Shown here: piece by piece, positions 21,952-63,954 of the stretch
Numbering within the stretch: position 1 is the stretch's first letter
Layout of the letters: each line of letters begins with the position of its first letter
NCBI GenBank assembly: GCA_965203565.1
Contig: OZ241896.1
Location: 553,707 to 617,706 of the forward strand
Reading direction: 5' to 3'
DNA from: Vicinamibacterales bacterium
GTDB taxonomy: Bacteria > Acidobacteriota > Vicinamibacteria > Vicinamibacterales > UBA8438
Length of the DNA stretch: 64,000 bases
Position numbers and translations under genes: made by a program
Notes under the pieces: model-generated
Seen by the model: the letters and a program-made list of their open reading frames with translations, nothing else
Told to the model about the DNA's origin: nothing
The model's database searches: none

Positions 21952-22110
21952 CAGCCCGTGGCGAAAGTCCCCGCTGCATTCGAGCGGCGATGCATCCCGC
22001 CTGACGGCGTTGTTCGTCGGTTGCGTATGCCCAATATGCGCCCTCCTCACGCCTTGTCAGCCGGGCGCCTCACCGCTCTCGGCGCCCCGCGGGGATTCCA
22101 CCACGGGCTG
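21952..22110 (+). mobile_element. 159-bp TIR element, copy 1 (MITE-like), TSD TTGA
   Basis: The ends are CAGCCCGTGG...CCACGGGCTG, a perfect 10-bp TIR. TTGA at 21948-21951 is repeated at 22111-22114. The copy is near-identical to copies at 26933, 41777 and 63797. Confidence 0.85.
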
Positions 22111-22172
22111 TTGAGATCGCAAAGCCTACTACCCCGCGCGCCCGGCTGTAAAGCGCGTCGAAGCCCCTCGCT

Positions 22173-23006
22173 TTACTTGAGGAGGATGCGGGCGCCTCGG
22201 ATGCTCTCGGCGCTCAGGGTGCCGAGAAACGAAGGGATCAGACGGTCCATCAACTCGAAGTACGACGACAGCGCCGGCGTGTTCCGCGCGGCGTCGTACA
22301 GGATTTCCTCCCGGTGGCGCTCGGTGTACAGGGTCGCTCCGGTGCGCCCGTCGATGAAGATGAACTTCGGGCTCAGCACGTAGCCCCGGCGGTCGCGGTA
22401 CGCCCGGACCGGCGCAACCTGCCGCCGGCCGAACTCGTCGTAGACCTCCCGTTGCCGGGTGACCATCCCCGAGCGCTGATGCGGCGTGAAGTACACCGTC
22501 CCGGTGACGATCAGCGGATCCTGGAACTCTTCGCCCAACTGGCGCCAGTAACTCGTGTTGGCGAAGATGTGCTCGAGGTTCTCGACGTCCTCCTCCGAGT
22601 ACCGCTCTTGCGCATCCTCGTCGCCGGCGTCGTCTCCGGCCGCGGCGCTGTCTCCGGCCTCGGCGCTGTCCCCGGCCGCGGCGGCGTCTGCGCGCTCTCC
22701 GCCGTTCCCCGGGGCCCCGCCGCCCTGCTCCTCCGCGACCGCGGTCAACTCGATGACGTCGGCGTCGATGACCTGGAACTCCGAGTTGCTCCGGAGCTGG
22801 CTCTTCAGGAGCCGCGCGGTCTCCAGGTTCGTGTCCACCTCGTCGCTCCCGCCCGTCACGAATCCGGCGACGAGCACGCGCTGGAACCCCGACGCGTCGA
22901 GCTTCGGCTCGAGGGGCGTCTCGACCGGCACCTCGTAGTAGTTCGTGCACGCGGCCGCCGCGGCCAGCGCCGCCGCGCTACCGATCGCTCTCAGTGAGAC
23001 GGTCAT
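22173..23006 (-). CDS. Hypothetical lipoprotein with acidic low-complexity insert
   Basis: The 277-aa ORF has the signal plus lipobox MTVSLRAIGSAAALAAAAAC. An internal AGDSAEAGDSAAAGDDAGDED repeat is present. I recognise no family. Confidence 0.7.
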   Translation of the reverse strand: MTVSLRAIGSAAALAAAAACTNYYEVPVETPLEPKLDASGFQRVLVAGFVTGGSDEVDTNLETARLLKSQLRSNSEFQVIDADVIELTAVAEEQGGGAPGNGGERADAAAAGDSAEAGDSAAAGDDAGDEDAQERYSEEDVENLEHIFANTSYWRQLGEEFQDPLIVTGTVYFTPHQRSGMVTRQREVYDEFGRRQVAPVRAYRDRRGYVLSPKFIFIDGRTGATLYTERHREEILYDAARNTPALSSYFELMDRLIPSFLGTLSAESIRGARILLK

Positions 23007-23328
23007 TGATTTCCCTGAACAGGTCGTAGTTCTGCTGGATCATCGTGTTGTCCGGGTCGAGATCCAGCGCCCTCTCGTACGCCTCGCGCGCCCTGTCGAA
23101 CCGTCCGTCGCGTTCGTAGGCGATGCCGAGGTTGTTCCAGGCCGCGGCGTAGGACGGATCGATCTCCACGGCGCGCTCCCACCGGTAGATCGCTTCCTGC
23201 CACAGCCCCCGCTGCACGACCGCGATGCCGAACTCGACCTGCGCCTTCGCGTCGGACCGGGCGTCCGCGGCGGCGGTCCCGCCTGCCGCCGCCAGCATGC
23301 ACGCGACGATGCAGGCCCGGATGCGCAT
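22978..23328 (-). CDS. TPR-repeat lipoprotein
   Basis: The ATG at 23328 gives MRIRACIVACMLAAAGG. TPR motifs follow: WQEAIYRWERAVEIDPSYAAAWNNLGIAYERDGRFDRAREAYERALDLDPDN. Confidence 0.75.
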   Translation of the reverse strand: MRIRACIVACMLAAAGGTAAADARSDAKAQVEFGIAVVQRGLWQEAIYRWERAVEIDPSYAAAWNNLGIAYERDGRFDRAREAYERALDLDPDNTMIQQNYDLFREINDRLTESDR

Positions 23329-23393
23329 CTGACTCGTTTCACTATAGCCAGCGCATCCGGCGCACGCAAGCGTGAACGGTTCATGGCACGATA

Positions 23394-24491
23394 GTGGCAT
23401 GGATAAACGAGCAGCGCATGGACCCGCTCGACGCCGTCACGTTGTCGGTGCTTCTCGGCGCGCCGCGGAGCAGGCGCATGCTCCAGCCGCGCCGGGCCGC
23501 GGGCGGGGACGGCGATCAACGGGCGCTTCCGGCGTTCGACGAGCTGCTCGACCGGATGGAGGCTGCGGACGGCGCGCTCCGGGACGAGGTGGAGCGCGCG
23601 GCGCGGGAGGCGGTCCGGATCCTGGCGCTGGCGGCGCAATGCGGAGCAGCGCCGCTGGCGTTCGGCTCGCCGGTCTATCCCGCCGCGCTGGCGGCGATCC
23701 CCGACCCTCCGCCGATCCTGTGGCGCCGGGGCGCGGCGGCGGTGCTCGAAGCGCCTGTCGTCGCCGTCGTCGGGTCCCGCACCGGCTCCCGGTACGCGCT
23801 GGAGGTGGCGGCGCGCCTGGGGTCCGAGCTGGCGGGCCGCGGCGTGGCGGTGGCGAGCGGCTTGGCGCGGGGCGTCGACGCGGCGGCGCACCGCGGCGCC
23901 CTCGCTGCGGGCGGGCCGACCATCGCGGTCCTGGGGTGCGGCGTGGACGTCGTCTATCCGCCGGAGCACGGCCCGTTGATGGAAAAGGTCGCCGCCGGAG
24001 GCGTCGTCGTCAGCGAGTTCGCTCCGGGCGCGCCGCCGAGGCCGTTCCATTTCCCGCAGCGCAACCGGATCATCAGCGGGCTGTCGCTGGCGGTGGTGGT
24101 CGTCGAAGCGTCCGAGCGCAGCGGCTCGCTCGTCACCGCCCGGCACGCCGCCGAGCAGGGCCGGGAGGTGATGGCGGTCCCCGGCAACGTGCTGACCGGC
24201 CGATCCCGCGGCGGCCACGCACTGATCAGGGATGGGGCGAAGATCGTCGAGACGGCGGACGATATTCTGGAAGAGATCGGTCCCGCGGCCGGGACGGGCC
24301 CGCGCAGCGAGGCGAACGCGCCGGCCGGTGACGAGCTGTTGCAGCGGATGGACCGCGGCGAGAGCTACGACATGGACGATCTGGCCGAGCTCTCGGGACT
24401 GAGCCGCTCCGCGCTCTCGTCGCGCGTGCTGGAGCTCGAGCTGCAGGGCCGCCTCACCCGGCTGGCCGGCGGCCGGTTCAGCCGCTCCTGA
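23394..24491 (+). CDS. dprA: DNA-processing protein DprA (Smf)
   Basis: VAVVGSR..S.YA...LA..GV.VASGLARGVDAAAH.GAL...G.TIAVLG.G.D..YP.E...L and FP.RNRIISGLS are present. An alternative start lies at 23418. Confidence 0.9.
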   Translation: MAWINEQRMDPLDAVTLSVLLGAPRSRRMLQPRRAAGGDGDQRALPAFDELLDRMEAADGALRDEVERAAREAVRILALAAQCGAAPLAFGSPVYPAALAAIPDPPPILWRRGAAAVLEAPVVAVVGSRTGSRYALEVAARLGSELAGRGVAVASGLARGVDAAAHRGALAAGGPTIAVLGCGVDVVYPPEHGPLMEKVAAGGVVVSEFAPGAPPRPFHFPQRNRIISGLSLAVVVVEASERSGSLVTARHAAEQGREVMAVPGNVLTGRSRGGHALIRDGAKIVETADDILEEIGPAAGTGPRSEANAPAGDELLQRMDRGESYDMDDLAELSGLSRSALSSRVLELELQGRLTRLAGGRFSRS

Positions 24492-24535
24492 ACGGAGGAT
24501 GGTAGGGTAGAGAAGGGAGAGAGGATCGAACCGGT

Positions 24536-26932
24536 ATGGCGAAAGCGCTCGTCATCGTCGAATCGCCGGCCAAGGCCAGGACGATCAACAAGTACCTGGG
24601 CAAGGACTTCAAGGTCGTGGCCTCCATGGGGCACGTCCGCGATCTGCCCAGGAGCAAGCTCGGCGTCGACGTCGACACGGGGTTCGCGCCCGAATACGTC
24701 GTCATCCCGGAGCGGAAGAAAGTGATCAGAACGTTGCGCGACGCCGCCCGGAACATCGACCGCGTCTACGTCGCGACCGACCCGGATCGCGAGGGCGAAG
24801 CGATCGGCTGGCATCTCGCGAAGGAGCTCGGCGCCGGCAAGCGGCGCGTCAGCCGCCTGACGTTCAACGAGATCACCAGCGCCGCGGTGCGCGCCGCGCT
24901 CGAACGGCCGGTCGAGATCGATCAGCGCATGGTCGACGCCCAACAGGCGCGCCGGGTGCTCGATCGGCTCGTCGGGTACAAGCTGAGTCCGCTGCTCTGG
25001 GACAAGGTGCGGCGCGGCTTGTCGGCGGGCCGCGTGCAGTCGGTGGCGCTCAAGCTGGTCTGCGACCGCGAGGACGAGATCGACCGGTTCGTCCCGAAGG
25101 AGTACTGGCGCATCACGGCCCGGCTGGCGGGGCGCGCGCCTCCGGAGTTCAGCGCGCGGCTCGTCAAGAAGGGCGGCAACGCCCTCGAAATCGGCGGCGA
25201 AGCCGAAGCGAAGGCGGTGCTCGCCGGGCTGGACGGGGCGGCCTGGATCGTCGATTCGGTCGTGACGAAGGAGCGCAAGCGGCGCCCCGCGCCCCCGTTC
25301 ATCACCAGCAAGCTCCAGCAGGCCTCGCGGTTCCCGGTCAGGCGGACGATGCAGATCGCCCAGCAGCTTTACGAAGGAATCGAGCTGCCCGGCGAAGGCT
25401 CGGCCGGGCTGATCACGTACATGCGGACCGACTCCACCCGGATCGCCGAGCAGGCGCTGGGCGAGGTTCGCAAGCACGTCGCCGCGGAGTTCGGCGCCGA
25501 GTACCTGCCGGCGCAGCCGAACCGGTACCGCGCGAAGAAGGACGCCCAGGACGCGCACGAGGCGATCCGGCCGACCGCGGTCGATCGGACCCCGGCAAGC
25601 CTGCAGCCGCATCTGAGCCGGGAGCAGCACTACCTGTACCGCCTGATCTGGAGCCGCTTCGTCGCGTCCCAGATGCCGCCCGCCACGTTCGACGACACGA
25701 CGGTGGAGATCGCCGCCGGCGAGTACCGGTTCCGGACCAAGGGGTCGGTGCTGAAGTTCGACGGCTGGATGGCGGCCTGGGGCGGGGCCGCCGCCGCGGC
25801 CGCCCCGGCGCCGGCCGGCGGCGAGGAGGACGACGCGTCGAAGCCGTTGCCGCCGCTCGAGAAGGGCGATCGCCTGACGCTGAAGGCGCTGACGCCGGAG
25901 CAGAAGTTCACCCAGCCGCCGCCGCGGTTCGGCGAGGCCACGCTGGTCAAGGAACTCGAGGAGAACGGCATCGGGCGCCCCAGCACCTACGCCGCGATCA
26001 TCGGGGTTCTGCAGATGCGCGAGTACGCCGAGAAGATCGAGGGGCGGTTCAAGCCTACCCGGCTCGGCCGGCTGGTCACCCGGCTGTTGTCCGACAGCTT
26101 CGACGACATCGTCCAGGTGGCGTACACGCGCGAGATGGAAGAGCGTCTCGACCGGATCGAAGAGGGCGAGGCTGATTACGAAGGGACGATCGGCAGTTTT
26201 TACCGAACGTTCAGCACCGATCTGGAGAAGGCGGCCAGGGCGATGCCGGACGTCAAGGCGAACGGGCTGCCGAGCGACGAGACGTGCGACAAGTGCGGGA
26301 AGTCGATGGTCCTCAAGGTCGGGAAGTTCGGGATGTTCCTGGCCTGCTCCGGCTATCCCGACTGCCGGAACACGCAGGAGGTCGACAAGGCCGAGGAGCC
26401 GGCGGAAGACGTGCAGGAGAGCTGCGAGACCTGCGGCCGTCCGATGGTGGTCAAGCGGGGCAGGTTCGGGCAGTTCCTGGCCTGTTCGGGGTATCCGGAG
26501 TGCAGGACGACCCGCAAGCTGATCGCGACTTCCGGGGGGCTCGCGAGCGCGAAACCCGACCGGCCGCTCGACGAGTCGTGCCCGAAGTGCGGGAAGCGCC
26601 TCGTGATCAGGCACGGGCGGTTCGGCGAGTTCACCGCCTGCTCCAACTATCCGGCGTGCCGCTACCTGAAGCACGAGAGCACCGGCGTGGCCTGCCCGCG
26701 TGACGGCGGCGACGTCGTGGTGCGGCGGTCTCGGCGCGGCAAGGTGTTCTACGGATGCGCCAACTACCCCGACTGCGATTTCGTCGTCTGGAACAAGCCG
26801 GTTGCAGAAAAGTGCCCGGCCTGCGGCGCGGCGTTCCTGGTCGAGAAGGTGACCAGGCGCAACGGGCGTCAGGTGCAGTGCTGGAAGGACGCCTGCGACT
26901 ACGTGCGCAGCGAGGAGCTGGCCGCTGTCTAG
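24536..26932 (+). CDS. topA: DNA topoisomerase I
   Basis: The 798-aa ORF carries a TOPRIM start (MAKALVIVESPAKARTINKYLG), the active-site region GLITYMRTDS, and four C-terminal CxxC...CxxC zinc ribbons. Confidence 0.97.
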   Translation: MAKALVIVESPAKARTINKYLGKDFKVVASMGHVRDLPRSKLGVDVDTGFAPEYVVIPERKKVIRTLRDAARNIDRVYVATDPDREGEAIGWHLAKELGAGKRRVSRLTFNEITSAAVRAALERPVEIDQRMVDAQQARRVLDRLVGYKLSPLLWDKVRRGLSAGRVQSVALKLVCDREDEIDRFVPKEYWRITARLAGRAPPEFSARLVKKGGNALEIGGEAEAKAVLAGLDGAAWIVDSVVTKERKRRPAPPFITSKLQQASRFPVRRTMQIAQQLYEGIELPGEGSAGLITYMRTDSTRIAEQALGEVRKHVAAEFGAEYLPAQPNRYRAKKDAQDAHEAIRPTAVDRTPASLQPHLSREQHYLYRLIWSRFVASQMPPATFDDTTVEIAAGEYRFRTKGSVLKFDGWMAAWGGAAAAAAPAPAGGEEDDASKPLPPLEKGDRLTLKALTPEQKFTQPPPRFGEATLVKELEENGIGRPSTYAAIIGVLQMREYAEKIEGRFKPTRLGRLVTRLLSDSFDDIVQVAYTREMEERLDRIEEGEADYEGTIGSFYRTFSTDLEKAARAMPDVKANGLPSDETCDKCGKSMVLKVGKFGMFLACSGYPDCRNTQEVDKAEEPAEDVQESCETCGRPMVVKRGRFGQFLACSGYPECRTTRKLIATSGGLASAKPDRPLDESCPKCGKRLVIRHGRFGEFTACSNYPACRYLKHESTGVACPRDGGDVVVRRSRRGKVFYGCANYPDCDFVVWNKPVAEKCPACGAAFLVEKVTRRNGRQVQCWKDACDYVRSEELAAV

Positions 26933-27091
26933 CAGCCCGTGGCGAAAGTCCCCGCTGCGTTCGAGCGGCGATGCATCCCGCCTGACGGCGTTGTTCGTCG
27001 GTTGCGTATGCCCAATATGCGCCCTCCTCACGCCTTGTCAGCCGGGCGCCTCACCGCTCTCGGCGCGACGCGGGGATTCCACCACGGGCTG
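26933..27091 (+). mobile_element. 159-bp TIR element, copy 2, TSD CTAG
   Basis: The element begins immediately after the topA TAG stop. CTAG at 26929-26932 is repeated at 27092-27095. It has the same TIRs and interior as copy 1, with a few substitutions. Confidence 0.85.
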
Positions 27092-27099
27092 CTAGCCGG

Positions 27100-27204
27100 C
27101 AGCCCGCGCAGGAAAGCCCCGCTGCATTCGACGGGCGCTGAATCCCGGCTGAACGGCCTTGTCAGCCGGGCGCCCCGCCCGTGTTTCGAGCCGCCGCGCG
27201 GTCA
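27100..27204 (+). repeat. Internally deleted, diverged derivative of the TIR element
   Basis: It shares CAGCCCG.G..GGAAAG.CCCGCTGCATTCGA...CCTTGTCAGCCGGGCGCC with the full element but lacks the central ~42 bp. CCGG is present on both sides (27096-27099 and 27205-27208). The 3' boundary is uncertain. Confidence 0.5.
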
Positions 27205-29034: not shown

Positions 29035-29063
29035 CGGACTCCCTCCCCGCTCAGGCTCCGTGC

Positions 29064-30029
29064 TCACCGCACCGTGACGGTCACTTCCCGACTGCTCGCC
29101 GCCCCGCCGTCGTGCGCCAGCGCCCGCAGCACGAACGTCCCCGACGCGCCGAACGTCGCCCGCACCCGATGCCGGCCGTCCGCGGGCAGCGGCGGCGGCG
29201 CCCACCCGCGCGTCCACGGCGACCCGTGCTTGAAGTCCGGGTACGCCTTGAACGGCCGGGGGTCGAACGTCACGCGGCCGCCGTCGCCGCGGTAGACGTG
29301 CCACGCCACCCGCAGCCCCAGGGCGGCGCCCTGGAACGGGCCGCCGCGGGCCGGCTGCGGGGCGGGGACCCCGTCGTCGCCCGCCACCGCGACCAGCTCG
29401 ATCGGCTGGCCGACCGCGGCGCGGCGGCGCGCCGCGCCTTCGATCCGCACCGTCGGCGCCTGGTTGCGCTCGGTGATTCCCTGCACGTCGAAACCGGTGT
29501 GCTGCCGGTAGATGACGCGCCGGTCGAGGAGGAACTCCGGAATCAGCGCCGCGTGCGCCCGCTCGGTCTTCCCGTGCGCCGTCAGCGTCCAGACCAGCTC
29601 CCGGCCGCCGAAGTCGGCCGGTACGGTGACGCTGAAGACGTTCAGGTTGCGCCGCGGCAGGAACCAGGTCGGCTGCCCCCGGTCCGGTCCGCCCGGATCG
29701 ATCCGGTTGTCCGGGCCGATCGGAACGTGGAGATGCTCTTCGTAGTTCCGGTTGAGGTAGCCGAACAGCAGCGCGATCGTCCCGTCCGGGTTCGCCGTCC
29801 ACCCTTCGAATGACGGGGCGACGTTCTGGCCGCGCGAGTACGTGATCTGGCCGGCCGCGGCCGAGAGGACGAGCGCCGCCGAGCCCGCCGCTGCCGCCAC
29901 CGCCGCGGCGCGCCGCGGCAATCCCGCGCCCCGCGCCCGCCGGCGGCCCGCGGGGAAAGCCCGCGCGGCGCCGAGACCGGCGATGCGCCCGGCTGCCTTC
30001 GTCACGGCGCTGTCAATCGTTCTGCGCAA
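29064..30029 (-). CDS. Hypothetical secreted protein (Tat-like N-terminus, C-terminal Ig-like region)
   Basis: The 321-aa ORF sits inside the PQQ/haem operon and its start overlaps the upstream gene end. I recognise no family. The start codon is uncertain. Confidence 0.6.
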   Translation of the reverse strand: MRRTIDSAVTKAAGRIAGLGAARAFPAGRRRARGAGLPRRAAAVAAAAGSAALVLSAAAGQITYSRGQNVAPSFEGWTANPDGTIALLFGYLNRNYEEHLHVPIGPDNRIDPGGPDRGQPTWFLPRRNLNVFSVTVPADFGGRELVWTLTAHGKTERAHAALIPEFLLDRRVIYRQHTGFDVQGITERNQAPTVRIEGAARRRAAVGQPIELVAVAGDDGVPAPQPARGGPFQGAALGLRVAWHVYRGDGGRVTFDPRPFKAYPDFKHGSPWTRGWAPPPLPADGRHRVRATFGASGTFVLRALAHDGGAASSREVTVTVR

Positions 30030-31383
30030 GCCGCCGGCGGGCGGTCAGCTCTTCCTCGTACTGCTCCTCGGTCAATCCGACGAACCGCCCGAGAAAGAAG
30101 AACATGTCGTCCATCGACCGGCTGCCGAGCCCGCGCCAGTTCCGCGGCGCGATGACGTTCCGGTTCCCGGCGGAGTTGTCGTACCAGGCGATGGCGTGCA
30201 GGATCGTCCCGGCCGGCAGCAGCGGCGCGGCGTGGTCGGCGTAGTTGTACACCTTGACCCAGTTGTGGTCGTAGCCGGCGCAGGTCAGCGTCTCCCGGAC
30301 GCCGTCCGGGTACTGCGCGTTGAGGCACATCCGCCTGCCGCCCGCGTGCATGTGCGGTTCGAACGTCACCAGCTTCGACGGCCGCTTCGTCACCCCGAGC
30401 GCATCGAACCGGACGTTCTCGGCCCCCGCCGGGATGTCCAGGTCGTTGAAGGCGAGGAAGACGCCCGGCCCCGGCGCGGCGTACTTCGGCGCGTAGCCGG
30501 CCGGATGGAACTTGAAGCCGACGTCGAGCCGCGCCGTCACCTCCTCGCCGAACGCGTGGGTGTGCACCCGCCAGTGGAGGTACGACCCGGCCGGCAGCCT
30601 GATCCCCAGCCCGTCGGGGTAGCGCGTCGCGTTCTGCCCCGCCTCGTGCGTCATCATGAACGCGCCCTCGATCGGGTTGACCGGCCCCGGCGTGTCGCCT
30701 GCGCCCGGCGCCCCCGCCGTGATCCCGGCGTGGTGAATCACCGAGTAGCCGCCGGCGCCGTCCGCCCCGCCGTAGCCGCCGTCCACCCGGACCTCGTGGA
30801 CCTCGACCGCCTCGACGTACCGGTCCTCGGCCAGCCCGACCGGCGTCGACTCCCAGTAGCCGTGCCAGTCGGCCGCCACCGCCTCGACCACCTTCTCGGG
30901 CGACGAGACGATCAGATCGGGCGTCCCGATCGTCCACTCTCTGCCGTTCGGGAACTGCCGGGGCGGCGGCAGGTCGGCCGGGTCGCCGCGCGGCGCGCCG
31001 GCGTCCACCCAACGGCCGATGAGGGCGATCTCCTCGTCGCTCAGCGACGGGTCGTCCTTGAACGCCTGGATGCCGACCGTCTTCTCGATGAACCACGGCG
31101 GCATCGTGCGCGCCGCCGTCCGCACCCTGATGGCGCGCGCCCAGGGCCGCACGTCGCGGTAGGTGAGCAGCGCCATCGGCGCGCCCCCGCCCGGCCCCGG
31201 CCGATGACACCCCTGGCACGACCGCTGGAGGATCGGCGCGACGTCCTTCGTGAACGTCACTTCCGCCGCGTCCTGTTCGGCCCCCGCCGGCGCGGCCCCG
31301 AGGGCGAGCATGGCCAGCGCCGGCGCCGCTCCCGCGATTACCGCTCGAATGATCGCCGCTTCGGCGTTCGATCCGACCCGCAT
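30013..31383 (-). CDS. c-type cytochrome-domain protein (CxxCH) with His-rich C-terminal domain
   Basis: The ATG at 31383 is followed by a signal peptide and then FTKDVAPILQRSCQGCHRPG, a PSCyt-like haem c motif. Downstream, IHHAG...HWRVHTHAFG...EPHMHAGGRRM resembles the HH/HxH/M copper sites of PHM/DBH-like monooxygenases. The copper-site reading is inference. Confidence 0.7.
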   Translation of the reverse strand: MRVGSNAEAAIIRAVIAGAAPALAMLALGAAPAGAEQDAAEVTFTKDVAPILQRSCQGCHRPGPGGGAPMALLTYRDVRPWARAIRVRTAARTMPPWFIEKTVGIQAFKDDPSLSDEEIALIGRWVDAGAPRGDPADLPPPRQFPNGREWTIGTPDLIVSSPEKVVEAVAADWHGYWESTPVGLAEDRYVEAVEVHEVRVDGGYGGADGAGGYSVIHHAGITAGAPGAGDTPGPVNPIEGAFMMTHEAGQNATRYPDGLGIRLPAGSYLHWRVHTHAFGEEVTARLDVGFKFHPAGYAPKYAAPGPGVFLAFNDLDIPAGAENVRFDALGVTKRPSKLVTFEPHMHAGGRRMCLNAQYPDGVRETLTCAGYDHNWVKVYNYADHAAPLLPAGTILHAIAWYDNSAGNRNVIAPRNWRGLGSRSMDDMFFFLGRFVGLTEEQYEEELTARRRLAQND

Positions 31384-31406
31384 TCCTGCATTCCTCCCCG
31401 GCCGCC

Positions 31407-32042
31407 CTACCGGTGCTCCAGCACGCGCAGATGAACGGCGGCGACCATGTGCATGTAGCCGCCCACGCCGGCGTAGCGGTCGGCGGCGGCGGCGCGGATA
31501 TGCTCCAGCGCTTCGCCGTCCCGCCCCTGCGCCTCGTGGTACAGCCCGACGTACAGGTGAGCGTAGAACCGGCCCGAGGGGGCGTCGCCGGCGGCGGCCA
31601 GGACGTCGGCCGGCGGGAGATCGCCGCTGAACATCCGGTAGATCTCGCGCATCGGCGCGCGCGGGTCGGGGCCTGTCGGCAGCAGCGCCGCCCGGGCCGC
31701 CGCCGGCGACTCGGCCCGCGCGACGCAGAGGTAGTGCCAGGCGGCGTTCTCGACGTCGTTGGGATTCACCGTCCGGTGCGACTCGAACTGCGCGCGGCAG
31801 TCGTCGTACCGCTCCGCGTAGTAGAGCGCGATGCCGCGCTGCCACAGGTGGGGAGCCCGGTCCGGCAGCAGCTCCGCCACCTGGTCGAATCCCGCCGCCG
31901 CCGCGACGATGCCGCCGCGCTCGAAATCAACGACGGCGCGCTCGAAGATCGCCTCCGCCGCCCCCTGCGCCCGGACGGCCGGCGCCGCGGCCGACGCCGC
32001 GAAGATCACGCCCGCCGCCGCGCAGGCGCACGGCGCCTTCAC
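31407..32042 (-). CDS. Hypothetical secreted helical-repeat (TPR-like) protein
   Basis: The 211-aa product starts at a GTG overlapping the upstream stop as GTGA. The signal or lipobox-like start is VKAPCACAAAGVIFAASAAAPA. The frame is that of track ORF 31407..33314(-). Confidence 0.6.
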   Translation of the reverse strand: MKAPCACAAAGVIFAASAAAPAVRAQGAAEAIFERAVVDFERGGIVAAAAGFDQVAELLPDRAPHLWQRGIALYYAERYDDCRAQFESHRTVNPNDVENAAWHYLCVARAESPAAARAALLPTGPDPRAPMREIYRMFSGDLPPADVLAAAGDAPSGRFYAHLYVGLYHEAQGRDGEALEHIRAAAADRYAGVGGYMHMVAAVHLRVLEHR

Positions 32043-33808: not shown

Positions 33809-34322
33809 CGCTCCGCCGCTCGATTCCGAAGCCCTGGTGAACCTCCTTGCCGCGCACGGCGTGGTCTACGTCCTGGTCGGCGGCCTGGCGGCAGTGGCGC
33901 ACGGCGCGGCGCGCGCGACGTTCGACATCGACATCGTGCCGCAGTGGAAACCCGCGAACCTCCGGGCGCTGGCCGATGCGCTGCGCGCCGCGGACGCCCG
34001 CCTCCGCGTCCCCGGCGTCGCCGCGCCGGTGGAGGCGCCTTTGGACGGCGGGACGTTCACCCGATACGAAGTTTCGACGTGGAGGACGAACTACGGCGAC
34101 ATCGACGTCGTCGTCGGGACGCCGACCCGTACGCGGGGGCGTCTCGCATCGTTCGAGCAACTGGCCGCCAGGGCGCACGCGCGTCGGCCGTTCGGCCTGA
34201 CGATCCTGGTGGCTGATCTGAATGACGTCATCGAGTCCAAGGAAGCGCTGGACCGGGAGCCGGACCGGGCGGCGTTGCCCGAACTGAGGCGGCTGCGCGA
34301 TCGGTTGCGCCGTCCGGAATAG
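33795..34322 (+). CDS. Small nucleotidyltransferase-fold protein (pol-beta superfamily)
   Basis: The 175-aa product carries YVLVGGLAAVAHGAARATFDIDIV, which fits the G[GS]x9-13DxD NTase motif. It appears translationally coupled to the HTH gene. Confidence 0.7.
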   Translation: MGDPDAPPLDSEALVNLLAAHGVVYVLVGGLAAVAHGAARATFDIDIVPQWKPANLRALADALRAADARLRVPGVAAPVEAPLDGGTFTRYEVSTWRTNYGDIDVVVGTPTRTRGRLASFEQLAARAHARRPFGLTILVADLNDVIESKEALDREPDRAALPELRRLRDRLRRPE

Positions 34323-34350
34323 CCGCTGCATCGGACCGCCGGTCAGGCTG

Positions 34351-34977
34351 TCAGGCCGCGGCCCGTTCGACGGCCGCGCGCAGATCGGCGTACCGCACCG
34401 CCCCGTCCCGCCGCCGCGGCCCGCGGCGGAACAGGGAACGGAGCGAGCCGAGTCCGATCGTCTTCTGGCCCGGACGCTCGCGGTCCAGGCGCCGCCGGCC
34501 GACGACGTAGAACGTCCACTGATCGACGTCCAGCGGATCGGCGGTGCGCCGGTCCGGGAGCCCCAGCACGCAGAAGACGTAGACGTCCGCCACGCGCCGC
34601 GGCTTGGACAGCACCGTGGTCCGGTTCGTCTCCGGGTCCCAGACCTGCTTCCGCGGGGCGACGTCGAATTCGATGGTCGACGGGCGGTCCTGCCGCCACG
34701 CCTGGACGTACGCCGCGCTCTTCACTTCGATCGTGACGCCCGACCGGGTCCGCAGGTCGAACGCCGCCTGCTCGACGCGCGGCTGGTGCGCCATGCCGAG
34801 CGCGCTCGCCACCAGGAACTCGGCCAGCACGCCGCGCCACGCGTTGCGCAGCAGGTCCGAGTACGACCAGCGCCAGCAGTCGAGCAGCGTCGGCCCGACG
34901 GCCGCGCCGCTCGCGTGGAAAGGTTCATCGCCGGACTTGAGCCCCGGACCGGGGCTCTTTCGCGCCGCCGCCGCCAT
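34351..34977 (-). CDS. Hypothetical PD-(D/E)xK nuclease-fold protein
   Basis: The ATG at 34977 gives a 208-aa product. AEFLV...FDLRTRSGVTIEVKSA fits the E...D...ExK restriction-endonuclease-like motif. The N-terminal extension of the track ORF is repeat-element sequence and is rejected. Confidence 0.55.
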   Translation of the reverse strand: MAAAARKSPGPGLKSGDEPFHASGAAVGPTLLDCWRWSYSDLLRNAWRGVLAEFLVASALGMAHQPRVEQAAFDLRTRSGVTIEVKSAAYVQAWRQDRPSTIEFDVAPRKQVWDPETNRTTVLSKPRRVADVYVFCVLGLPDRRTADPLDVDQWTFYVVGRRRLDRERPGQKTIGLGSLRSLFRRGPRRRDGAVRYADLRAAVERAAA

Positions 34978-35085
34978 GCCGTTCCGAAACGTGCGCCGCG
35001 CCGCCGCCGCCCAGGGGCGGAGCGGAGATCCGGAGCCGGATCCGAAACGGCCCGGCCGCACCGGCGCGCGCGGGCGGATTGTACA

Positions 35086-35203
35086 CAGCCCGTGGCGGAG
35101 GTCCCCGCTGCATTCGAGCGGCGATGCATCCCGCCTGACGGCGTTGTTCGTCGGTTGCGTATGCCCAATATGCGCCCTCCTCACGCCTTGTCCAGGCGGG
35201 CGC
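35086..35203 (+). repeat. TIR element, copy 3 (3'-truncated or diverged)
   Basis: The first ~105 bp match copies 1, 2, 4 and 7. After CCTTGTCCAGGCGGGCGCC the similarity ends, just before the LysR-family gene stop at 35208. Confidence 0.75.
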
Positions 35204-35207
35204 CCCG

Positions 35208-36092
35208 CTACGCCGGCGCGCTCGCCCGCGCCGCTTCGAGGAACTCGGCGGCGGCGTGCGACATCTCGCCCGAGCGCCGGTAGACCAGCCGCACCTGGCG
35301 CGGGAGCCTGAGCTGCCGCACCTTCACCGCGGCAAGCTGCCCGCGCGCGATCTCGGTGCGCGCGCAGCGTTGCGGGAGGAGCGCCACGCCGAGGCCCATC
35401 TCGACCGCGCGCTTGATCCCGTCGAGGCTCGGCAGGCCGATCTGGATGTTGATCGAGGTGTGGCGCTGCTCGTACAGCCGGAGCACGCGTTCGCGGGCGG
35501 GCGACGCCTCGTTGTGGGCAATGACCGTCTGGCGGCCGAACTCCTCCATCGTGATCCGCCGCCGCCCGGCCAGCGGATGCTCCGGGCTGATCAGCATCAC
35601 CAGCTCGTCCTCGCCGAGCGCGAGCGTCCGCAGGCCCCGCTCGCGCGGGGGGAAGGTCAGCACGCCGAAGTCGAGCGACCGGCTGAGCACCTCGCGCGCC
35701 ATCCGCCGCGCCGGGACGCGGCGCACCTCGACCTGCGCGTGCGGGTGGCGCGCGCGGAACCGCTCGACCACCGGCAGCAGCACGTGCACCGCTCCCTCGT
35801 TCGCCCCGATCAGCACCCGCCCGCGCCGCAGGTCCTGGAGCTCGCGGACCGCGCCCTCCGCCTCGTCCTTCAGCCGGGTCAGCCGCTCGGCGTAGTCGAG
35901 CAGCAGTTCGCCGGCCTCCGTGAGCTGGCCCCCCTTCGACGACCGGTCGAACAGCCGCTCGGCGAGCTCCGCTTCGAGCCGCCTGATCGCCTGGCTCACC
36001 GCCGGCTGCGTCCGGTGCAGGCGGGCGGCGGCGCGCGAGAAGCTGCGCTCGGCCGCCACGGCGAGGAAGACCTGGAGCTCGGCGAGGTCCAT
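35208..36092 (-). CDS. LysR-family transcriptional regulator
   Basis: The 294-aa ORF has the N-terminal wHTH MDLAELQVFLAVAAERSFSRAAARLHRTQPAVSQAIRRLE. It is divergent from leuA. Confidence 0.9.
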   Translation of the reverse strand: MDLAELQVFLAVAAERSFSRAAARLHRTQPAVSQAIRRLEAELAERLFDRSSKGGQLTEAGELLLDYAERLTRLKDEAEGAVRELQDLRRGRVLIGANEGAVHVLLPVVERFRARHPHAQVEVRRVPARRMAREVLSRSLDFGVLTFPPRERGLRTLALGEDELVMLISPEHPLAGRRRITMEEFGRQTVIAHNEASPARERVLRLYEQRHTSINIQIGLPSLDGIKRAVEMGLGVALLPQRCARTEIARGQLAAVKVRQLRLPRQVRLVYRRSGEMSHAAAEFLEAARASAPA

Positions 36093-36214
36093 CCGAGAAT
36101 TATAATAAATGCTTATCCAATCGTAATATTTATAATCTTGACTTAGATCGCGCCGGCGCGCGTTAATAGACAGGTGGGCGTGAGTCGATCAGGTCGGTCC
36201 GACCGGGAGGCGCC
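36093..36214. promoter_or_regulatory. AT-rich divergent LysR/leuA control region with T-N11-A dyad
   Basis: ATAA-N7-TTAT lies at 36102-36116 and fits the LysR T-N11-A box. A perfect TATAAT hexamer and a TTGACT hexamer lie nearby. ATGCTT at 36109-36114 matches the half-site repeated at 21-135. Confidence 0.45.
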
Positions 36215-37420
<1,206 letters not shown>

Positions 37421-37484
37421 TTCCGCGCAGTCCCGGCGCAGCAGTATCAACAGCGCAACACCGACAGGATCCCGGCATGACCCG

Positions 37485-41698: not shown

Positions 41699-41776
41699 CC
41701 GCCGGCGGACGCGCGGCGCCGCCCGTCTCGGCGCCTCACGGGGCTCCGCCGCGGGCTGGTAACATGTGAGGCTTGG

Positions 41777-41935
41777 CAGCCCGTGGCGAAAGTCCCCGCT
41801 GCATTCGAGCGGCGATGCATCCCGCCTGACGGCGTTGTTCGTCGGTTGCATATGCCCAATATGCGCCCTCCTCACGCCTTGTCAGGCGGGCGCCTCACCG
41901 CTCTCGGCGCCCCGCGGGGATTCCACCACGGGCTG
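41777..41935 (+). mobile_element. 159-bp TIR element, copy 4, TSD TTGG
   Basis: TTGG at 41773-41776 is repeated at 41936-41939. The copy lies between the two tandem DUF5916-like paralogues. It carries GCATAT instead of GCGTAT in hairpin 3. Confidence 0.85.
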
Positions 41936-47835: not shown

Positions 47836-49146
47836 ATGGGCGATCCGATGGCGCTGGACGCGGAACGCTGGTTCGGACTGTCGCAGCACGGGACGACCGT
47901 GCGCACCGAGGTCGCGGCGGGCGTGACCACCTTCCTGACGATGGCGTACATCGTCTTCGTCAACCCGCAGATCCTCTCCGAAGCCGGCATGCCGTTCGGC
48001 CCGGTCTTCGTGGCGACCTGCGTGTCGGCCGCGTTCGCCACGCTGGTGATGGGACTGTACGCCAACTACCCGATCGCGCTGGCGCCGGGGATGGGACTCA
48101 ACGCGTTCTTCGCCTTCGGAGTCGTCCTGGGGATGGGGCACGCCTGGGAGGTGGCGCTCGGCGCGGTGTTCGTCTCCGGGGTGCTGTTTCTCGCCCTGAG
48201 CGTGCTGCCGGTGCGGAAGTGGATCGTCAACGCGGTCCCGCGGGCGCTGAAGATGGCGATCTCGGCCGGCATCGGCCTGTTCCTCGGCGTCATCGCCCTG
48301 CGGAACGCCGGCGTCGTCGCGGACAGCCCGGCGACGCTGGTCACCGCCGGCGATCTGGCGGCGCCGGAGCCGGTGCTCGCGCTGCTCGGCTTCGGCGTCA
48401 TCGCGGCGCTGACGGCGCGCCGCGTGCCGGGCGCCGCCATCATCGGCATCCTCGGCGTCACCGCCGCCGGCGTCGCCTGGGGCGTGTCCGAATGGAAAGG
48501 TTTCGCGGCGCCGCCCCCCGACCCGACGCCGGCGCTGCTGGCGCTCGACGTCTCCGGGGCGCTGCAGGCCGGGATGATCACGGTCATCCTGACGTTCCTC
48601 ATCGTCGATCTGTTCGACACCACGGGCACGCTGATCGGCGTGGCGCAGCAGGCGAACCTGCTCGACGCGCAGGGGCGGCTCCCCCGGATCGAGCGCGCGC
48701 TGGTCGCCGACTCCACCGGGACGGTGGCCGGCTCGCTGCTCGGCACGTCGCCGGTGACCAGCTACATCGAGAGCGCGGCCGGCGCCGGCGCGGGGGGACG
48801 CACCGGACTCACCGCGGTCGTCGTGGCCGGCCTGCTCCTGGCCTGCCTGTTCTTCGCGCCGCTGGCCGAGTCGATCCCGGGGTACGCCACCGCGCCGGCC
48901 ATCCTGTACGTGGCCTGCCTGATGACGAAGGCGCTGGTCGACGTGGACTGGGAGGACGTCACCGAGTGGGCCGCCGCCGTCGTCACCGCCATCGCCGTCC
49001 CGTTGACGTTCTCGATCGCCGACGGCATCGGCATCGGCTTCGTGACGTACGTGGTGATCAAGGCGCTGGCGGGCCGGTTCCGCGACTGTCCCGTGACGCT
49101 GGCGGTGGTGGCGGCGCTCTTCGCGGCGAAGTTCGCGCTGCTGTAG
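47836..49146 (+). CDS. NCS2-family purine permease (AzgA-type adenine/guanine/hypoxanthine)
   Basis: The ATG at 47836 gives ...FGLSQHGTTVRTEVAAGVTTFLTMAYIVFVNPQIL...GMGLNAFFAF. About 12 TM segments are apparent. The upstream part of the track ORF overlaps the tRNA. Confidence 0.88.
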   Translation: MGDPMALDAERWFGLSQHGTTVRTEVAAGVTTFLTMAYIVFVNPQILSEAGMPFGPVFVATCVSAAFATLVMGLYANYPIALAPGMGLNAFFAFGVVLGMGHAWEVALGAVFVSGVLFLALSVLPVRKWIVNAVPRALKMAISAGIGLFLGVIALRNAGVVADSPATLVTAGDLAAPEPVLALLGFGVIAALTARRVPGAAIIGILGVTAAGVAWGVSEWKGFAAPPPDPTPALLALDVSGALQAGMITVILTFLIVDLFDTTGTLIGVAQQANLLDAQGRLPRIERALVADSTGTVAGSLLGTSPVTSYIESAAGAGAGGRTGLTAVVVAGLLLACLFFAPLAESIPGYATAPAILYVACLMTKALVDVDWEDVTEWAAAVVTAIAVPLTFSIADGIGIGFVTYVVIKALAGRFRDCPVTLAVVAALFAAKFALL

Positions 49147-49195
49147 CAGCCCGTGGCGGAACCCCGCGCGGCTGTCAGTCAGGGCCCCGCGGGCC
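49147..49195 (+). repeat. Remnant of the TIR element (5' end)
   Basis: CAGCCCGTGGCGGAACCCCGCG starts immediately after the permease TAG stop. It retains TGTCAG and CCCCGCGGG blocks but lacks the 3' terminus. Confidence 0.55.
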
Positions 49196-50310: not shown

Positions 50311-50329
50311 CGTTTCCAGGGGGAAGCGC

Positions 50330-51322: not shown

Positions 51323-51323
51323 A

Positions 51324-52991: not shown

Positions 52992-52993
52992 TT

Positions 52994-54001: not shown

Positions 54002-54055
54002 GGTCAGCCGGGCTCCTCACCGCTCTCGGCGCGACGCGGGGTTCCGCCACGGGCT
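54002..54055 (+). repeat. Remnant of the TIR element (3' end)
   Basis: GTCAGCCGGGCTCCTCACCGCTCTCGGCGCGACGCGGGGTTCCGCCACGGGCTG matches the last ~54 bp of the full element. Confidence 0.65.
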
Positions 54056-54070
54056 GCAAGGATCCGAGGA

Positions 54071-55450: not shown

Positions 55451-55554
55451 ACTAGGGCCCGCCGTCCAGAGGCGGCTTGAAAAGCCTTCGCATCAGGTCC
55501 CGCCGACGCTCGTCCAGGCGGTGCTCCGGAAGCAGCTCGGAGCGCCGGGGCGGG

Positions 55555-56556: not shown

Positions 56557-56593
56557 CACGACCTCCTTGTCCGTCACTTCGTCCGTCACCTCG

Positions 56594-57613: not shown

Positions 57614-57635
57614 GGCTGCTGCCTCCACCCGCCGA

Positions 57636-58859: not shown

Positions 58860-58865
58860 GGCGGG

Positions 58866-60140: not shown

Positions 60141-60249
60141 AAGAGGAGGAAGGAACGCAGGGGGCGGAGCCGATCCGCGCCGGCGGCGGCCCTCCGCGAA
60201 GCAGGACGGCCCCGGCTGAAACCGGAAAAGACTGCGGCGCGCCTTCGGA

Positions 60250-61992: not shown

Positions 61993-62068
61993 GGCGTGAT
62001 TCCTCCTCGGATGACGCGGCCCGCGGGCCGCCGGCACTCGTGCCCCGAAGGATATCAGAGACGCGGCG

Positions 62069-62215
62069 TCAGCGTTGCTCCGGCGGCGGCGCGCACGCCG
62101 CCGCGGCCTCCCGCCGCATCACCTGCGCCCGGTGCAGCAGCACGTACAGGTCGGCGAGCCGCGGCAGCTCCGGATGCAGGCGGCGCACGAAGTCGCGCGG
62201 CTCGACGCCGGTCAT
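62069..62215 (-). CDS. Possible 48-aa ORF translationally coupled to the DUF2911-like gene
   Basis: Its ATG overlaps the upstream stop as ATGA at 62212-62215. The product is MTGVEPRDFVRRLHPELPRLADLYVLLHRAQVMRREAAAACAPPPEQR. I recognise no family, and it could be a chance ORF in GC-rich DNA. Confidence 0.25.
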   Translation of the reverse strand: MTGVEPRDFVRRLHPELPRLADLYVLLHRAQVMRREAAAACAPPPEQR

Positions 62216-62865
62216 TCTCCGATGGTGAACGGCACGGACGCAAGGACGTCGTCCCAGACGAGCGCCAGCCGTCCCCCGGCGTCGCTCACGTCGAGGAACT
62301 GCCAGGACAACTGATCGAACGAGCGGGAGGCGGTCTCGCGCCGCATCGGCATCCGGACGACGTCCCTGTCCGGCGTGTAGTAGTACGCGCCCCAGAGCGC
62401 CGCCTTGTTCTCGTAGTCGTACCGCTGCTGCGCCGGCCAGGTCGAGACGATGAACGTCCAGGGATCGGTCGCCAGGTCGATGAAGACGGTGTACTCGCCG
62501 GGCGGGATGGCCTGCGTCCCGAAGACCAGCGGCGCTTCGGTCAGAAGCTGCGTGGAGGCGTTGGCGCCGGCGCGCCAGACGGGAGCGCCGTCGCTGAGCC
62601 ATTCGGCGTAGTCGGACGGACCGAACAGGTCGCGCCCGCGCTTGATCGGGCGGCCGTAGCGGATCTCGATCCAGCGCCCCCCGACGTACCCTTCCCGCTC
62701 GTCGTGCCGCCCGCCCACCTGCGTGGCCGACCGCCCCGGCGGACTCGCCGCCCGCCGTTCCTGCGCAAGCGCGGCGACGCCGCTGCCGGCGAGCCAAACG
62801 GCCCCGAAAACCCCGACGCCCCCGAGGACCCGAACGGCGCTCCGGACGCCGGCGATGATCCGCAT
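62212..62865 (-). CDS. DUF2911-like secreted protein
   Basis: The ATG at 62865 is followed by a signal peptide. WIEIRYGRP.KRGR..FG...VWRAGANAST.L....L.FG...IP.GEYT.F and the beta-rich remainder resemble DUF2911. Confidence 0.6.
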   Translation of the reverse strand: MRIIAGVRSAVRVLGGVGVFGAVWLAGSGVAALAQERRAASPPGRSATQVGGRHDEREGYVGGRWIEIRYGRPIKRGRDLFGPSDYAEWLSDGAPVWRAGANASTQLLTEAPLVFGTQAIPPGEYTVFIDLATDPWTFIVSTWPAQQRYDYENKAALWGAYYYTPDRDVVRMPMRRETASRSFDQLSWQFLDVSDAGGRLALVWDDVLASVPFTIGE

Positions 62866-62925
62866 GGGAGCAAGATAGCGCCATCGCGCCCGGAAAGCCA
62901 TCGGCGCGCGGAGCGCTCGGGCTGT

Positions 62926-63780
62926 TCAGGGCTTGCCGAGGGAGCCGCGTTCGACCGGCGTGTCGGGCAGCCGGCCCCACAGGTTCCACGAGGCGTCGAA
63001 GCTGCGGACGCGGGGGTAGCCGAGCAGCTGCGTCAGCACGAACCAGGTGTGGGCCGACCGGATTCCGATCGCGCAGTAGGTGATCGTTCCCTTGTCGGCG
63101 GTGACGCCCCGGCCCGCGTACAGGGCCGCCAGCTCGTCCGCCGGCTTGAACGTCCCGTCCGCGGCGAGAGCATCCTCGTAGTGGATGTGGGTCGCCCCGG
63201 GGATGTGGCCGGCCCGCTCGGCGCCCTGGGGCGGTTCGAACATGAACCGTTCACCGCGGTATTCCTCGGGCGTGCGGACGTCCAGCAGGACCTGATCCGC
63301 CGCGCCCACTGCGGTCCGGACCCGAGCCTCGAGGGCGCGCAGGTCCGGATCAGGGGCGCGGGCGCGATAGGCGGCGGCGGAGACGGTCGGCTCCTCGGTC
63401 GTCAGCGCGTGTCCGTCGACGACCCACTTCCTGCGCCCGCCATTGAGGACGCGCACGTCGGCGTGGCCGACGGATCGGAGAAACCAGAACACCCACGGCG
63501 CCATGGCGCCGTGGTCGCTGCAGGCGACGACGGTGGTGTCGTTGGCGATGCCCGAACGGCCGCAGAGCGCCTCCACCGACTCCTTGTCGAAATTGACGCT
63601 CCAGTCCGGCTTGAGCAGGGTCCCGGGACCGCTCCAGAACACCGCCCCGGGGATGTGGCCCGACTGGTGCGGCGCCGGGTCGAAATGCGCGTCCACGATG
63701 CGCACCCGCGGATCGTTCAGATGGGCGGCGACCCAGTCGGTTTCAACCAGGGCTTCGGGGTGGGCGTACGCTTTCGTCAT
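62926..63780 (-). CDS. Two-domain rhodanese (thiosulfate/3-mercaptopyruvate sulfurtransferase)
   Basis: The 284-aa ORF has the start LVETDWVAAHLNDPRVRIVD...GHIPGA. The second domain carries the active-site loop TYCAIGIRSAHTWF. Confidence 0.88.
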   Translation of the reverse strand: MTKAYAHPEALVETDWVAAHLNDPRVRIVDAHFDPAPHQSGHIPGAVFWSGPGTLLKPDWSVNFDKESVEALCGRSGIANDTTVVACSDHGAMAPWVFWFLRSVGHADVRVLNGGRRKWVVDGHALTTEEPTVSAAAYRARAPDPDLRALEARVRTAVGAADQVLLDVRTPEEYRGERFMFEPPQGAERAGHIPGATHIHYEDALAADGTFKPADELAALYAGRGVTADKGTITYCAIGIRSAHTWFVLTQLLGYPRVRSFDASWNLWGRLPDTPVERGSLGKP

Positions 63781-63796
63781 CGAAGTCGCCGGTCAG

Positions 63797-63954
63797 CAGC
63801 CCGTGGTGAAAATCCCCGCTGCATTCGAGCAGCGATGCATCCCGCCTGACGGCGTTGTTCGTCGGTTGCGTATGCCCAATATGCGCCCTCCTCACGCCTT
63901 GTCAGGCGGGCGCCTCGCCGCTCTCGGTGCGACGCGGGATTCCACCACGGGCTG
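63797..63954 (+). mobile_element. TIR element, copy 7 (158 bp), TSD TCAG
   Basis: TCAG at 63793-63796 is repeated at 63955-63958. The copy starts 16 bp upstream of the rhodanese start codon and is the most diverged intact copy. Confidence 0.85.

Follow-up and report, generated by a model that had tools for sequence, protein, structure and literature searches.

Which kind of element is the 159-bp repeat that recurs along the 64-kb window (the whole stretch of 64,000 nucleotides analysed here), and what moves it? Whole copies can be found at four places in the window, all on the plus strand, each 158-159 bp long and 94.3-100% identical to copy 1. Copy 1 (21952..22110, 159 bp) is flanked by TTGA at 21948-21951 and 22111-22114, copy 2 (26933..27091, 159 bp) by CTAG at 26929-26932 and 27092-27095, copy 3 (41777..41935, 159 bp) by TTGG and copy 4 (63797..63954, 158 bp, 94% identical to copy 1) by TCAG. 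The TAG stop codon of topA is contained in the left CTAG of copy 2. Copy 1 has the L21 gene on one side and the next minus-strand gene on the other. All four copies start with CAGCCCGTGG and end with CCACGGGCTG, the terminal inverted repeats (TIRs) being perfect over 10 bp and imperfect over ~23 bp when the inner inverted block is included. The sequence-only reading had proposed a MITE on the basis of these four near-identical copies, their perfect 10-bp TIRs and their perfect 4-bp direct repeats, all of which are borne out. Its statement that no transposase is encoded in the window also agrees with our check, in which none of the four mobile-element proteins in hand, and no transposase homologue, was found to be encoded there. 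No conserved ORF was found in the MITE. Across 196 MITE ends the first 10 positions are almost invariant, and sizes range from 56 to 263 bp with a mode at 158-159 bp, shorter variants measuring 56-90 bp and longer ones 164-263 bp. Hundreds of copies per genome, as that reading suggested, are plausible.

The same 64-kb window holds at least six partial copies. Four degenerate copies had been reported from the sequence, and all four exist, with minor adjustments to their coordinates. A 3'-truncated copy occupies 35086..35204 on the plus strand (element positions 1-118, 96.6% identity) and sits within a stretch of the window that is missing from L105, a strain 99% identical to the window. Directly downstream of copy 2, an older diverged derivative at 27100..27190 (plus strand) has lost part of its interior and lacks the right end; L105 has this derivative, whereas L099, a 97%-identical strain, does not. 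A 28-bp terminal remnant (CAGCCCGTGGCGGAACCCCGCGCGGCTG) at 49147..49174 (plus strand) follows directly after the TAG stop codon of a gene ending at 49146, and a 3' remnant covers 54003..54056 on the plus strand (positions 105-159, 91% identity). The count of four was too low, two remnants having been missed, namely a diverged 3' remnant at 41715..41758 (plus strand, positions 113-159, 81% identity), 18 bp upstream of copy 3, and an old remnant on the minus strand at 29946..29995 (positions 107-157, 84% identity), which can also be found at the orthologous place in L099, L101, L103 and L105.

Flanking duplications similar to those in the window can be found on copies elsewhere. In a survey of 98 elements from the window and 98 fetched loci, the 4-bp duplication is perfect in 56/98 elements and carries one mismatch in 29/98, whereas shuffled flanks give, by chance, 7.7 perfect duplications on average and 16 at most. 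The most frequent duplications are CTAG (13), CCAG (8) and TCAA (5), and the preferred target is CTAG, often a stop codon. In strains 97-99% identical to the window, the sites of copies 1 and 2 are empty and hold the duplicated 4-mer only once. For copy 1, L099 has a single TTGA, across which the window segments 14383-21951 and 22111-26932 both align, and for copy 2 a single CTAG is present in L099 as well as in L105. Since L105 has copy 1 and lacks copy 2, insertion polymorphism exists between 99%-identical strains. The L025 locus, tried as an empty site for the copy in L035, gave only an approximate match because the intergenic DNA has diverged.

Members of the family occur in 19 or more MAG assemblies, of which all but a few bear the label Vicinamibacterales or Vicinamibacteria, and copies from different species are ~93% identical where the flanking genes of these species share 72-87% identity. 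The 159-bp repeat is a genuine miniature transposon of soil Acidobacteria, with recent activity. The literature searched, for MITEs of Acidobacteria as well as for the terminal sequence, yielded no account of a MITE from Vicinamibacterales and no paper with that sequence in a relevant context. BLAST of plasmid records gave no MITE match. The viral contigs scanned gave none either, and one further scan of them counts for little, because the right end as its pattern defined it is a minority variant.

Regarding the source of the transposase, a scan of metagenomes for the 23-bp left end with any base but T after it returned a single match, L106. Its left end equals that of the MITE in 23/23 bases and lies at an insertion-sequence boundary beside CTAG, the locus reading CTAG followed directly by CAGCCCGTGGCGAAAGTCCCCGC and, 92 nt on, an ORF of at least 415 aa with matches to DUF772, DDE_Tnp_1 and DDE_Tnp_1_6. 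The Pfam scores of this transposase are 61.9 bits for PF05598 and 36.7 bits for PF01609, both over the cut-offs, and 26.7 bits for DDE_Tnp_1_6 (cut-off 25.1). Its best NCBIfam model is IS1182 (NF033551) at 168.9 bits, below the curated cut-off of 270, and the best NCBIfam IS5 model, NF033581, scores 72.4 bits, below the cut-off of 140. Full-length relatives of the ORF have 454 aa with 74-91% amino-acid identity and are found within ~1.49-kb elements, whose ends read, for example, CAGCCTGTGGCGAAAGTC...GGGCTTTCGCCACGGGCTG with CTAG/CTAG or CTAT/CTAT flanks. Common to these relatives are CAGCC(C/T)GTG...CACGGGCTG ends and CTAG duplications, and the whole clade has CAGCC(C/T)GTG ends, an AAAGTC motif and CTAG duplications. 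A 51%-identical plasmid element (pLB1), whose annotation is IS5 family, has the termini CAG..CTG and is flanked by a CTAA duplication. In L042, a MITE-bearing Vicinamibacterales locus, a truncated relative reads TTAG followed directly by CAGCCTGTGGCGAAAGTC, then ATGGCGATGGGC and a transposase fragment. Judged from these sequences, the autonomous partner is likely a ~1.49-kb IS5/IS1182-type insertion sequence encoding a 454-aa DDE transposase (DUF772 and DDE_Tnp_1).

Termini like those of the MITE do enclose a transposase gene, with the left 23 bp exact in L106 and complete ends in its relatives. The closest partner is seen at one end only, because L106 does not extend as far as its right end, and with flanks of 60% G+C its host is probably not the organism of the window. 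No intact partner was found in the window or in the 98 Vicinamibacterales loci (~0.8 Mb), nor was a genome found that carries the MITE together with an intact partner, the truncated copy in L042 being the only trace. The MITE and the insertion sequence have in common only the outer 16-23 bp; their interiors are unrelated, so simple internal deletion does not account for the MITE. The copies of the insertion sequence, flanked by CTAG, CTAT or CTAA, are also more CTAG-restricted in their duplications than those of the MITE.

Other candidates for a longer relative were rejected. Among the 98 loci, elements of 2067, 2148 and ~2158 bp with the same ends and a duplication proved to be MITEs carrying a group II intron, which uses the MITE right end as its homing site, and a 3120-bp pair is simply two MITEs. 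The only repeats above 350 bp common to the loci are this intron and an IS4-like element of 1337 bp, whose ends are unrelated. An IS4-family element in L105 adjoins CTAG, but its end is unrelated, and a candidate 1.7-kb pair in L085 has a chance end with one mismatch.

The reading that best accounts for these data, to which we give a probability of about 0.88, is that the 159-bp repeat is a MITE, i.e., a non-autonomous DNA transposon, moved in trans by the 454-aa transposase of a ~1.49-kb insertion sequence; it is supported by the duplications, the empty sites, a transposase with matching ends and the lack of an Rfam match. The ~23-bp ends, CAGCCCGTGG(C/T)G(A/G)AA..CCCCGC, would be bound and cut by a DDE transposase acting in trans and encoded in the only ORF of an insertion sequence from the IS5/IS1182 superfamily. 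A staggered 4-bp cut, preferably at CTAG or similar Y-Y-R-R tetramers, would be followed by gap repair yielding the 4-bp duplication, and movement may proceed by cut- or copy-and-paste. Since most such tetramers in a 72% G+C genome are found at stop codons, many copies land exactly on a stop codon, and since the duplication regenerates that codon, insertion leaves the protein unchanged.

That this particular transposase moves the MITE is what the shared ends suggest, and a different enzyme is improbable. The MITE might be moved by a DDE_Tnp_1 transposase of IS701 or ISH3 type, or by the nearby IS4-like elements, the matching end being a product of convergence or recombination. Such a view could draw on the exactly 4-bp duplications of IS701 and on the CRGT ends and 4-5-bp repeats of ISH3 (PMC2266710), on the presence of IS4-type elements in the same genomes as the MITE, and on the exactly matching insertion sequence, whose host is probably another organism than that of the window. 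However, the IS4-like elements examined have ends unrelated to those of the MITE, the IS701 end consensus (---YACT-Y--YR) does not fit it, and the 23/23 match sits exactly at an insertion-sequence boundary by CTAG, in a clade whose ends, motif and duplications are shared throughout. More improbable still is a REP/REPIN palindromic repeat spread by a RAYT (IS200/IS605-like HUH) enzyme, or another repeat lacking target duplications. While the high copy number, intergenic location, nearly full-length palindrome and strong hairpin would agree with it, as would the failure to find a partner in the same genome, it is contradicted by duplications that vary between copies and by empty sites with one 4-mer, and the ends match a DDE insertion sequence.

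The MITE reading can also be supplemented, without being replaced, by the proposal that the host keeps the element mainly for a role as functional RNA or regulatory module (an mRNA hairpin or a mobile promoter), transposition being only its means of spread; we regard this as possible but tentative. The element is predicted to fold into a hairpin, and this fold is supported by covariation: 98.5% of cells are paired across 51 distinct copies, and two-sided changes occur at seven pairs as against 1.8 +/- 1.0 in shuffles, none of 500 shuffles reaching the observed value and the signal being destroyed when the pairing partners are slid, although it rests on few lineages, mainly one subfamily, because divergence is low. 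Folding is more favourable for the minus than for the plus strand, both in folding energy (-99.4 kcal/mol, z -7.7, vs -86.5, z -5.9) and in the alignment fold (-92 vs -70.5). This asymmetry is visible only in folding energies and polymorphic pairs, and a naive arm-against-arm alignment gave no clear excess of G-U pairs on one strand. Sigma-70-like promoter matches (CTGACA, 16-nt spacer, CATATT) lie on the minus strand of copy 1 at 22033..22060, reading out through the left end, and identically in copy 2 at 27014-27041; they are matches to consensus only, and are the only two in 6 kb, where shuffled sequence gives a mean of 0.5. Between co-directional genes, called crudely from third-position G+C, the minus strand would be in the mRNA for 39 copies and the opposite strand for 13 (p = 0.0004), a split that becomes 23 to 3 when both neighbours are within 400 bp and 15 to 2 at stop-codon insertions, most of them at palindromic CTAG. 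Replication direction was rejected as the cause, since orientation flips repeatedly along three large contigs and is not tied to the halves of the chromosome. The high similarity of copies across species with more divergent flanking genes points the same way.

Against the proposal, a conserved hairpin could equally serve transposition at the DNA level and the cross-species similarity could reflect horizontal spread. Divergence is low, the gene calls are crude, the -35-like hexamer varies between MITE subfamilies and copy 3 of the window has the minority orientation. Moreover, the element matches no Rfam family: a tRNA is the sole Rfam match in the window at the gathering score, and a permissive search of copy 1 gave a best match of E = 3.8. 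A fuller and somewhat more doubtful version holds that Vicinamibacterales kept the MITE not merely as a genomic parasite but as a mobile regulatory module, with an outward promoter on the minus strand, a stable mRNA hairpin, copies surviving mainly when co-oriented with the neighbouring genes, and hundreds of ends offering a safe homing site for a group II intron. Taken with the stop-codon insertions, the orientation bias and promoter-like motif suggest that the element shapes operon expression, and the hairpin and the motif may affect neighbouring genes.

The intron within a MITE can be seen as a tidy case of a selfish element that lands harmlessly in another such element, and on the fuller version insertion sequence, MITE and intron would form a three-layer nesting. 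Vicinamibacterales, which are abundant soil bacteria and hard to culture, now have a defined, currently active MITE with a probable transposase. Its insertions could serve as a strain marker, as they differ between strains that are 99% identical, and there is a practical warning in that the repeat will break assemblies and create false ORFs in high-G+C genomes. The general understanding of MITEs is unchanged by these findings.

Among known systems, the candidate partner can be compared with both IS5 and IS1182. IS5-family likeness is found in its DUF772 and DDE_Tnp_1 domains, its YTAR-like 4-bp target duplications and the IS5 annotation of the pLB1 relative, whereas its transposase has 454 aa, its NCBIfam IS5 score is below the cut-off (72 vs 140 bits) and its ends read CAG, those of IS5 beginning with GG or GA; the window element itself differs in being a non-coding 159-bp repeat and not an insertion sequence. 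IS5 duplicates 4 bp at C(A/T)A(G/A) (PMC11677980), a pattern that CTAG and CTAA share. Regarding IS1182, likeness is found in the best NCBIfam model, the DDE_Tnp_1_6 match and the 4-bp direct repeats of the IS1182-family element ISPse1 (PMC3281130), while the score stays under 270 bits and the partner measures ~1.49 kb vs 1.65 kb for ISPse1. Correia elements of Neisseria and the ERIC/IRU repeats of enterobacteria resemble the window element as short non-coding hairpin repeats with inverted ends. Both are ~100-160 bp long, with very many intergenic copies and co-transcribed hairpins that have orientation-dependent effects on neighbouring mRNAs, and Correia elements have outward-facing promoters. 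Correia elements carry TA duplications, and no transposase is known for them; here the sequence is unrelated, the phylum is different, the duplications span 4 bp and in many cases contain no TA (TTGG, CCAG, TCAG), and there is a candidate partner insertion sequence. REP/REPIN elements are likewise short palindromic intergenic repeats with long persistence within a clade, but they have, to our knowledge, no target duplications and depend on an HUH enzyme (RAYT), whereas the window element has variable 4-bp duplications, clean empty sites and the ends of a DDE insertion sequence. As a short non-coding element with TIRs, variable duplications of fixed length, empty sites and ends shared with a transposase-encoding element, the 159-bp repeat has the features by which bacterial MITEs are recognized, and it is a new example of this well-known kind of element.

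On all the defining features tested, the repeat is a bacterial MITE. When copy 1 is compared by BLAST with the window (71.6% G+C), four full-length copies are found, 94.3-100% identical to copy 1 and all on the plus strand, namely copy 1 (21952-22110), copy 2 (26933-27091), copy 3 (41777-41935) and copy 4 (63797-63954). They start with CAGCCCGTGG, end with CCACGGGCTG and are flanked by the perfect 4-bp direct repeats TTGA, CTAG, TTGG and TCAG, respectively, exactly as the sequence-only reading had described. The four partial copies it had listed are real as well (35086-35204, 27100-27190, 49147-49174 and 54003-54056), and two further ones can be found at 41715-41758 and, on the minus strand, at 29946-29995. 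The sole Rfam match in the window is a tRNA, the element itself having no match.

topA ends at 26932, and three contigs (L099, L101 and L103) encoding TopA proteins 97% identical to that of the window are collinear with the window at ~97% DNA identity. In L099, the site of copy 1 is empty (...cgcgcccTTGAgatcgcaaag..., with one TTGA), as is that of copy 2 (...gcggtCTAGgcgtttcgcgcggtcacc..., with one CTAG containing the topA stop codon), where 13 bp only lie between topA and the convergent downstream gene. The closer strain L105, with a 99% identical contig, harbors copy 1 and lacks copy 2, its sequence at the latter site (gtCTAGccggcagcccgcgc...) being exactly that of the window minus copy 2 and one CTAG. 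The orthologous empty sites with a single 4-mer that the sequence-only reading had anticipated are thus found for TTGA in one strain and for CTAG in two; therefore, the element moved after the divergence of these strains, and every insertion duplicated 4 bp. An identity as REP or REPIN is rejected on account of these empty sites and of the variable 4-bp duplications. Regarding older copies, L105 has the degenerate one at 27100 and L099 lacks it, and the remnant at 29946 is kept in L099, L101, L103 and L105. Other differences between the strains include a 3.3-kb CarboxypepD_reg/outer-membrane beta-barrel gene, found in L099 and L105 and lacking in the window (31335-31403), and ~3.4 kb of the window (34069-37451, containing the truncated MITE at 35086) absent from L105.

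Beyond the window, at least 98 sites in the genome collection match the left end exactly over 26 bases; the matches listed derive from at least 19 assemblies, labeled nearly all as Vicinamibacterales or Vicinamibacteria (Acidobacteriota). Among 98 elements delimited in the window and the matched loci, the 4-bp duplication is perfect in 56 and has a single mismatch in 29; with shuffled flanks, perfect duplications number 7.7 on average and 16 at most. Copies elsewhere thus have duplications, too. The commonest, CTAG (13), CCAG (8) and TCAA (5), follow a Y-Y-R-R pattern. Element lengths are modular: besides the main form of 158-159 bp, short forms (56-90 bp) are reduced to the ends, with ~23 bp on the left and ~33 bp on the right, and long forms (164-263 bp) have additional small hairpins at fixed positions. 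Since two 56-bp copies of identical structure, in separate genomes, each have their own duplication, ~56 bp is probably all that movement requires in cis. A 90-bp variant is nested within another MITE copy (L047 4293-4382); at another locus, repeats of ~83 bp are arrayed in tandem (L045 5456-5950), and single units related to them adjoin MITEs at four loci (L050, L090, L082 and L068).

A group II intron (Rfam RF02003 and RF00029, with RVT_1 and GIIM domains in its ORF) interrupts the MITE in its right inverted end, at the identical nucleotide in four separate copies (L088 139-2205, L026 4165-6312, L015 ~115-2272 and L047 6492-8000). Three of these introns share one genome, and the fourth comes from another species; their mutual identities are 91-99%, and the minus-strand junctions read CAGCCCGTGGTG^GTGCGCC...CTCTAC^(G/A)AACCCCGCG. 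The intron apparently uses this MITE end as its homing site.

With regard to the source of the transposase, the metagenome scan was made with the 23-base left end followed by a non-T base, because the genome scan had demanded MITE bases 24-26. Its sole match, locus L106 (ctcCTAG|CAGCCCGTGGCGAAAGTCCCCGCcccgggaattgaagcc), contains an ORF that begins 92 nt after the end and, at 415 codons or more, runs off the contig, so that this closest partner is seen at its left end only. The protein matches DUF772, DDE_Tnp_1 and DDE_Tnp_1_6, and the best NCBIfam models are IS1182 (168.9 bits vs a cut-off of 270) and IS5_4 (72 bits vs 140). Its full-length relatives have 454 aa and reside in elements of ~1.49 kb, several assembly contigs being the element itself. 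Their boundaries are CTAG|CAGCCTGTGGCGAAAGTCCTCGA ... GGGCTTTCGCCACGGGCTG|CTAG in L111 and CTAG|CAGCCTGTGCTGAAAGTCCC ... CAGCACGGGCTG|CTAG in L118, with flanks CTAT/CTAT in L119 and CTAG/CTAG in six others (L107, L108, L109, L122, L123 and L124). Plasmid pLB1 carries a 51% identical element that is annotated as IS5 family, with ends reading CAG..CTG and CTAA as its duplication. The C(A/T)A(G/A) target of IS5 is duplicated over 4 bp (PMC11677980), and ISPse1, of the IS1182 family, has 4-bp repeats (PMC3281130). The candidate partner belongs to the IS5/IS1182 superfamily, its scores for both named families falling below the cut-offs.

The MITE and the insertion sequence have the outer 16-23 bp in common and nothing further in. 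The expectation of a transposase with matching ends is thus borne out by the left end of L106 and by both ends of its relatives, but not by an intact partner in a MITE-bearing genome: none bounded by MITE ends was found in ~0.8 Mb of Vicinamibacterales loci, where L042, from a genome full of MITEs, has a truncated relative only (TTAG|CAGCCTGTGGCGAAAGTC, then ATGGCGATGGGC, then a transposase fragment matching residues 134-201). In L106, the insertion sequence (1-1338) has 68.6% G+C vs 59.7% for the flanks (1343-4514); because of these flanks of ~60% G+C, the host probably differs from the organism of the window, and the contrast suggests a recent transfer from a higher-G+C host. Two IS4-like elements in Vicinamibacterales loci were rejected as partners, their ends being unrelated to the MITE. 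One IS4-like insertion sequence of 1337 bp and lower G+C occurs twice in one Vicinamibacterales genome (L005 3631-4967 and L084 2121-3457; 99.9% identical, ORF of 397 aa, ends ATCCCCTCATT). The IS4-family element of L105 (1-690, Nterm_IS4 and DDE_Tnp_1; orthologous to the position just left of 15253 in the window, which lacks it), again with an end unrelated to the MITE, adjoins the CTAG in which the gene at 14320-15258 has its stop codon.

Insertions at stop codons are many, with that at window 26929-26932 and 21 elements across the loci lying exactly on CTAG, TTGA or TCAG; as the 4-bp duplication restores the stop codon, the protein is unchanged. In a 72% G+C genome, stop codons supply the preferred target in large part. 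Orientation relative to genes, counted once per flank on crude gene calls from third-position G+C, is biased: between co-directional genes, the minus strand is in the mRNA in 39 cases vs 13 for the opposite (p = 0.0004), with 23 vs 3 where both neighbors lie within 400 bp, and 15 vs 2 at insertions abutting a stop codon. Most of the latter are at palindromic CTAG, which excludes target asymmetry as the cause, and chromosome halves are rejected as the driver since orientation does not track them. Over its full length, the element forms an imperfect palindrome; as RNA, its minus strand folds at -99.4 kcal/mol (z -7.7) vs -86.5 (z -5.9) for the plus strand. In the minus-strand consensus fold of 51 distinct copies (52 pairs, 98.5% of cells paired), two-sided changes occur in 7 pairs vs 1.8 ± 1.0 in shuffles (reached in 0/500), a signal that is lost when partners are slid and that is carried by few lineages, with low divergence among copies. 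In 6 kb, sigma-70-like matches ("CTAGCA-type" hexamers CTGACA, a 16-nt spacer, CATATT) are confined to copies 1 and 2, where they lie on the minus strand and point out through the left end. Taken together, the fold, the orientation and the promoter-like motif suggest post-insertion selection acting via transcription or mRNA structure.

The mechanism of this MITE is well supported. The element adds a further MITE for a poorly studied phylum, a known kind of element with a testable regulatory angle; Correia and ERIC elements have a similar lifestyle, yet are unrelated to it.
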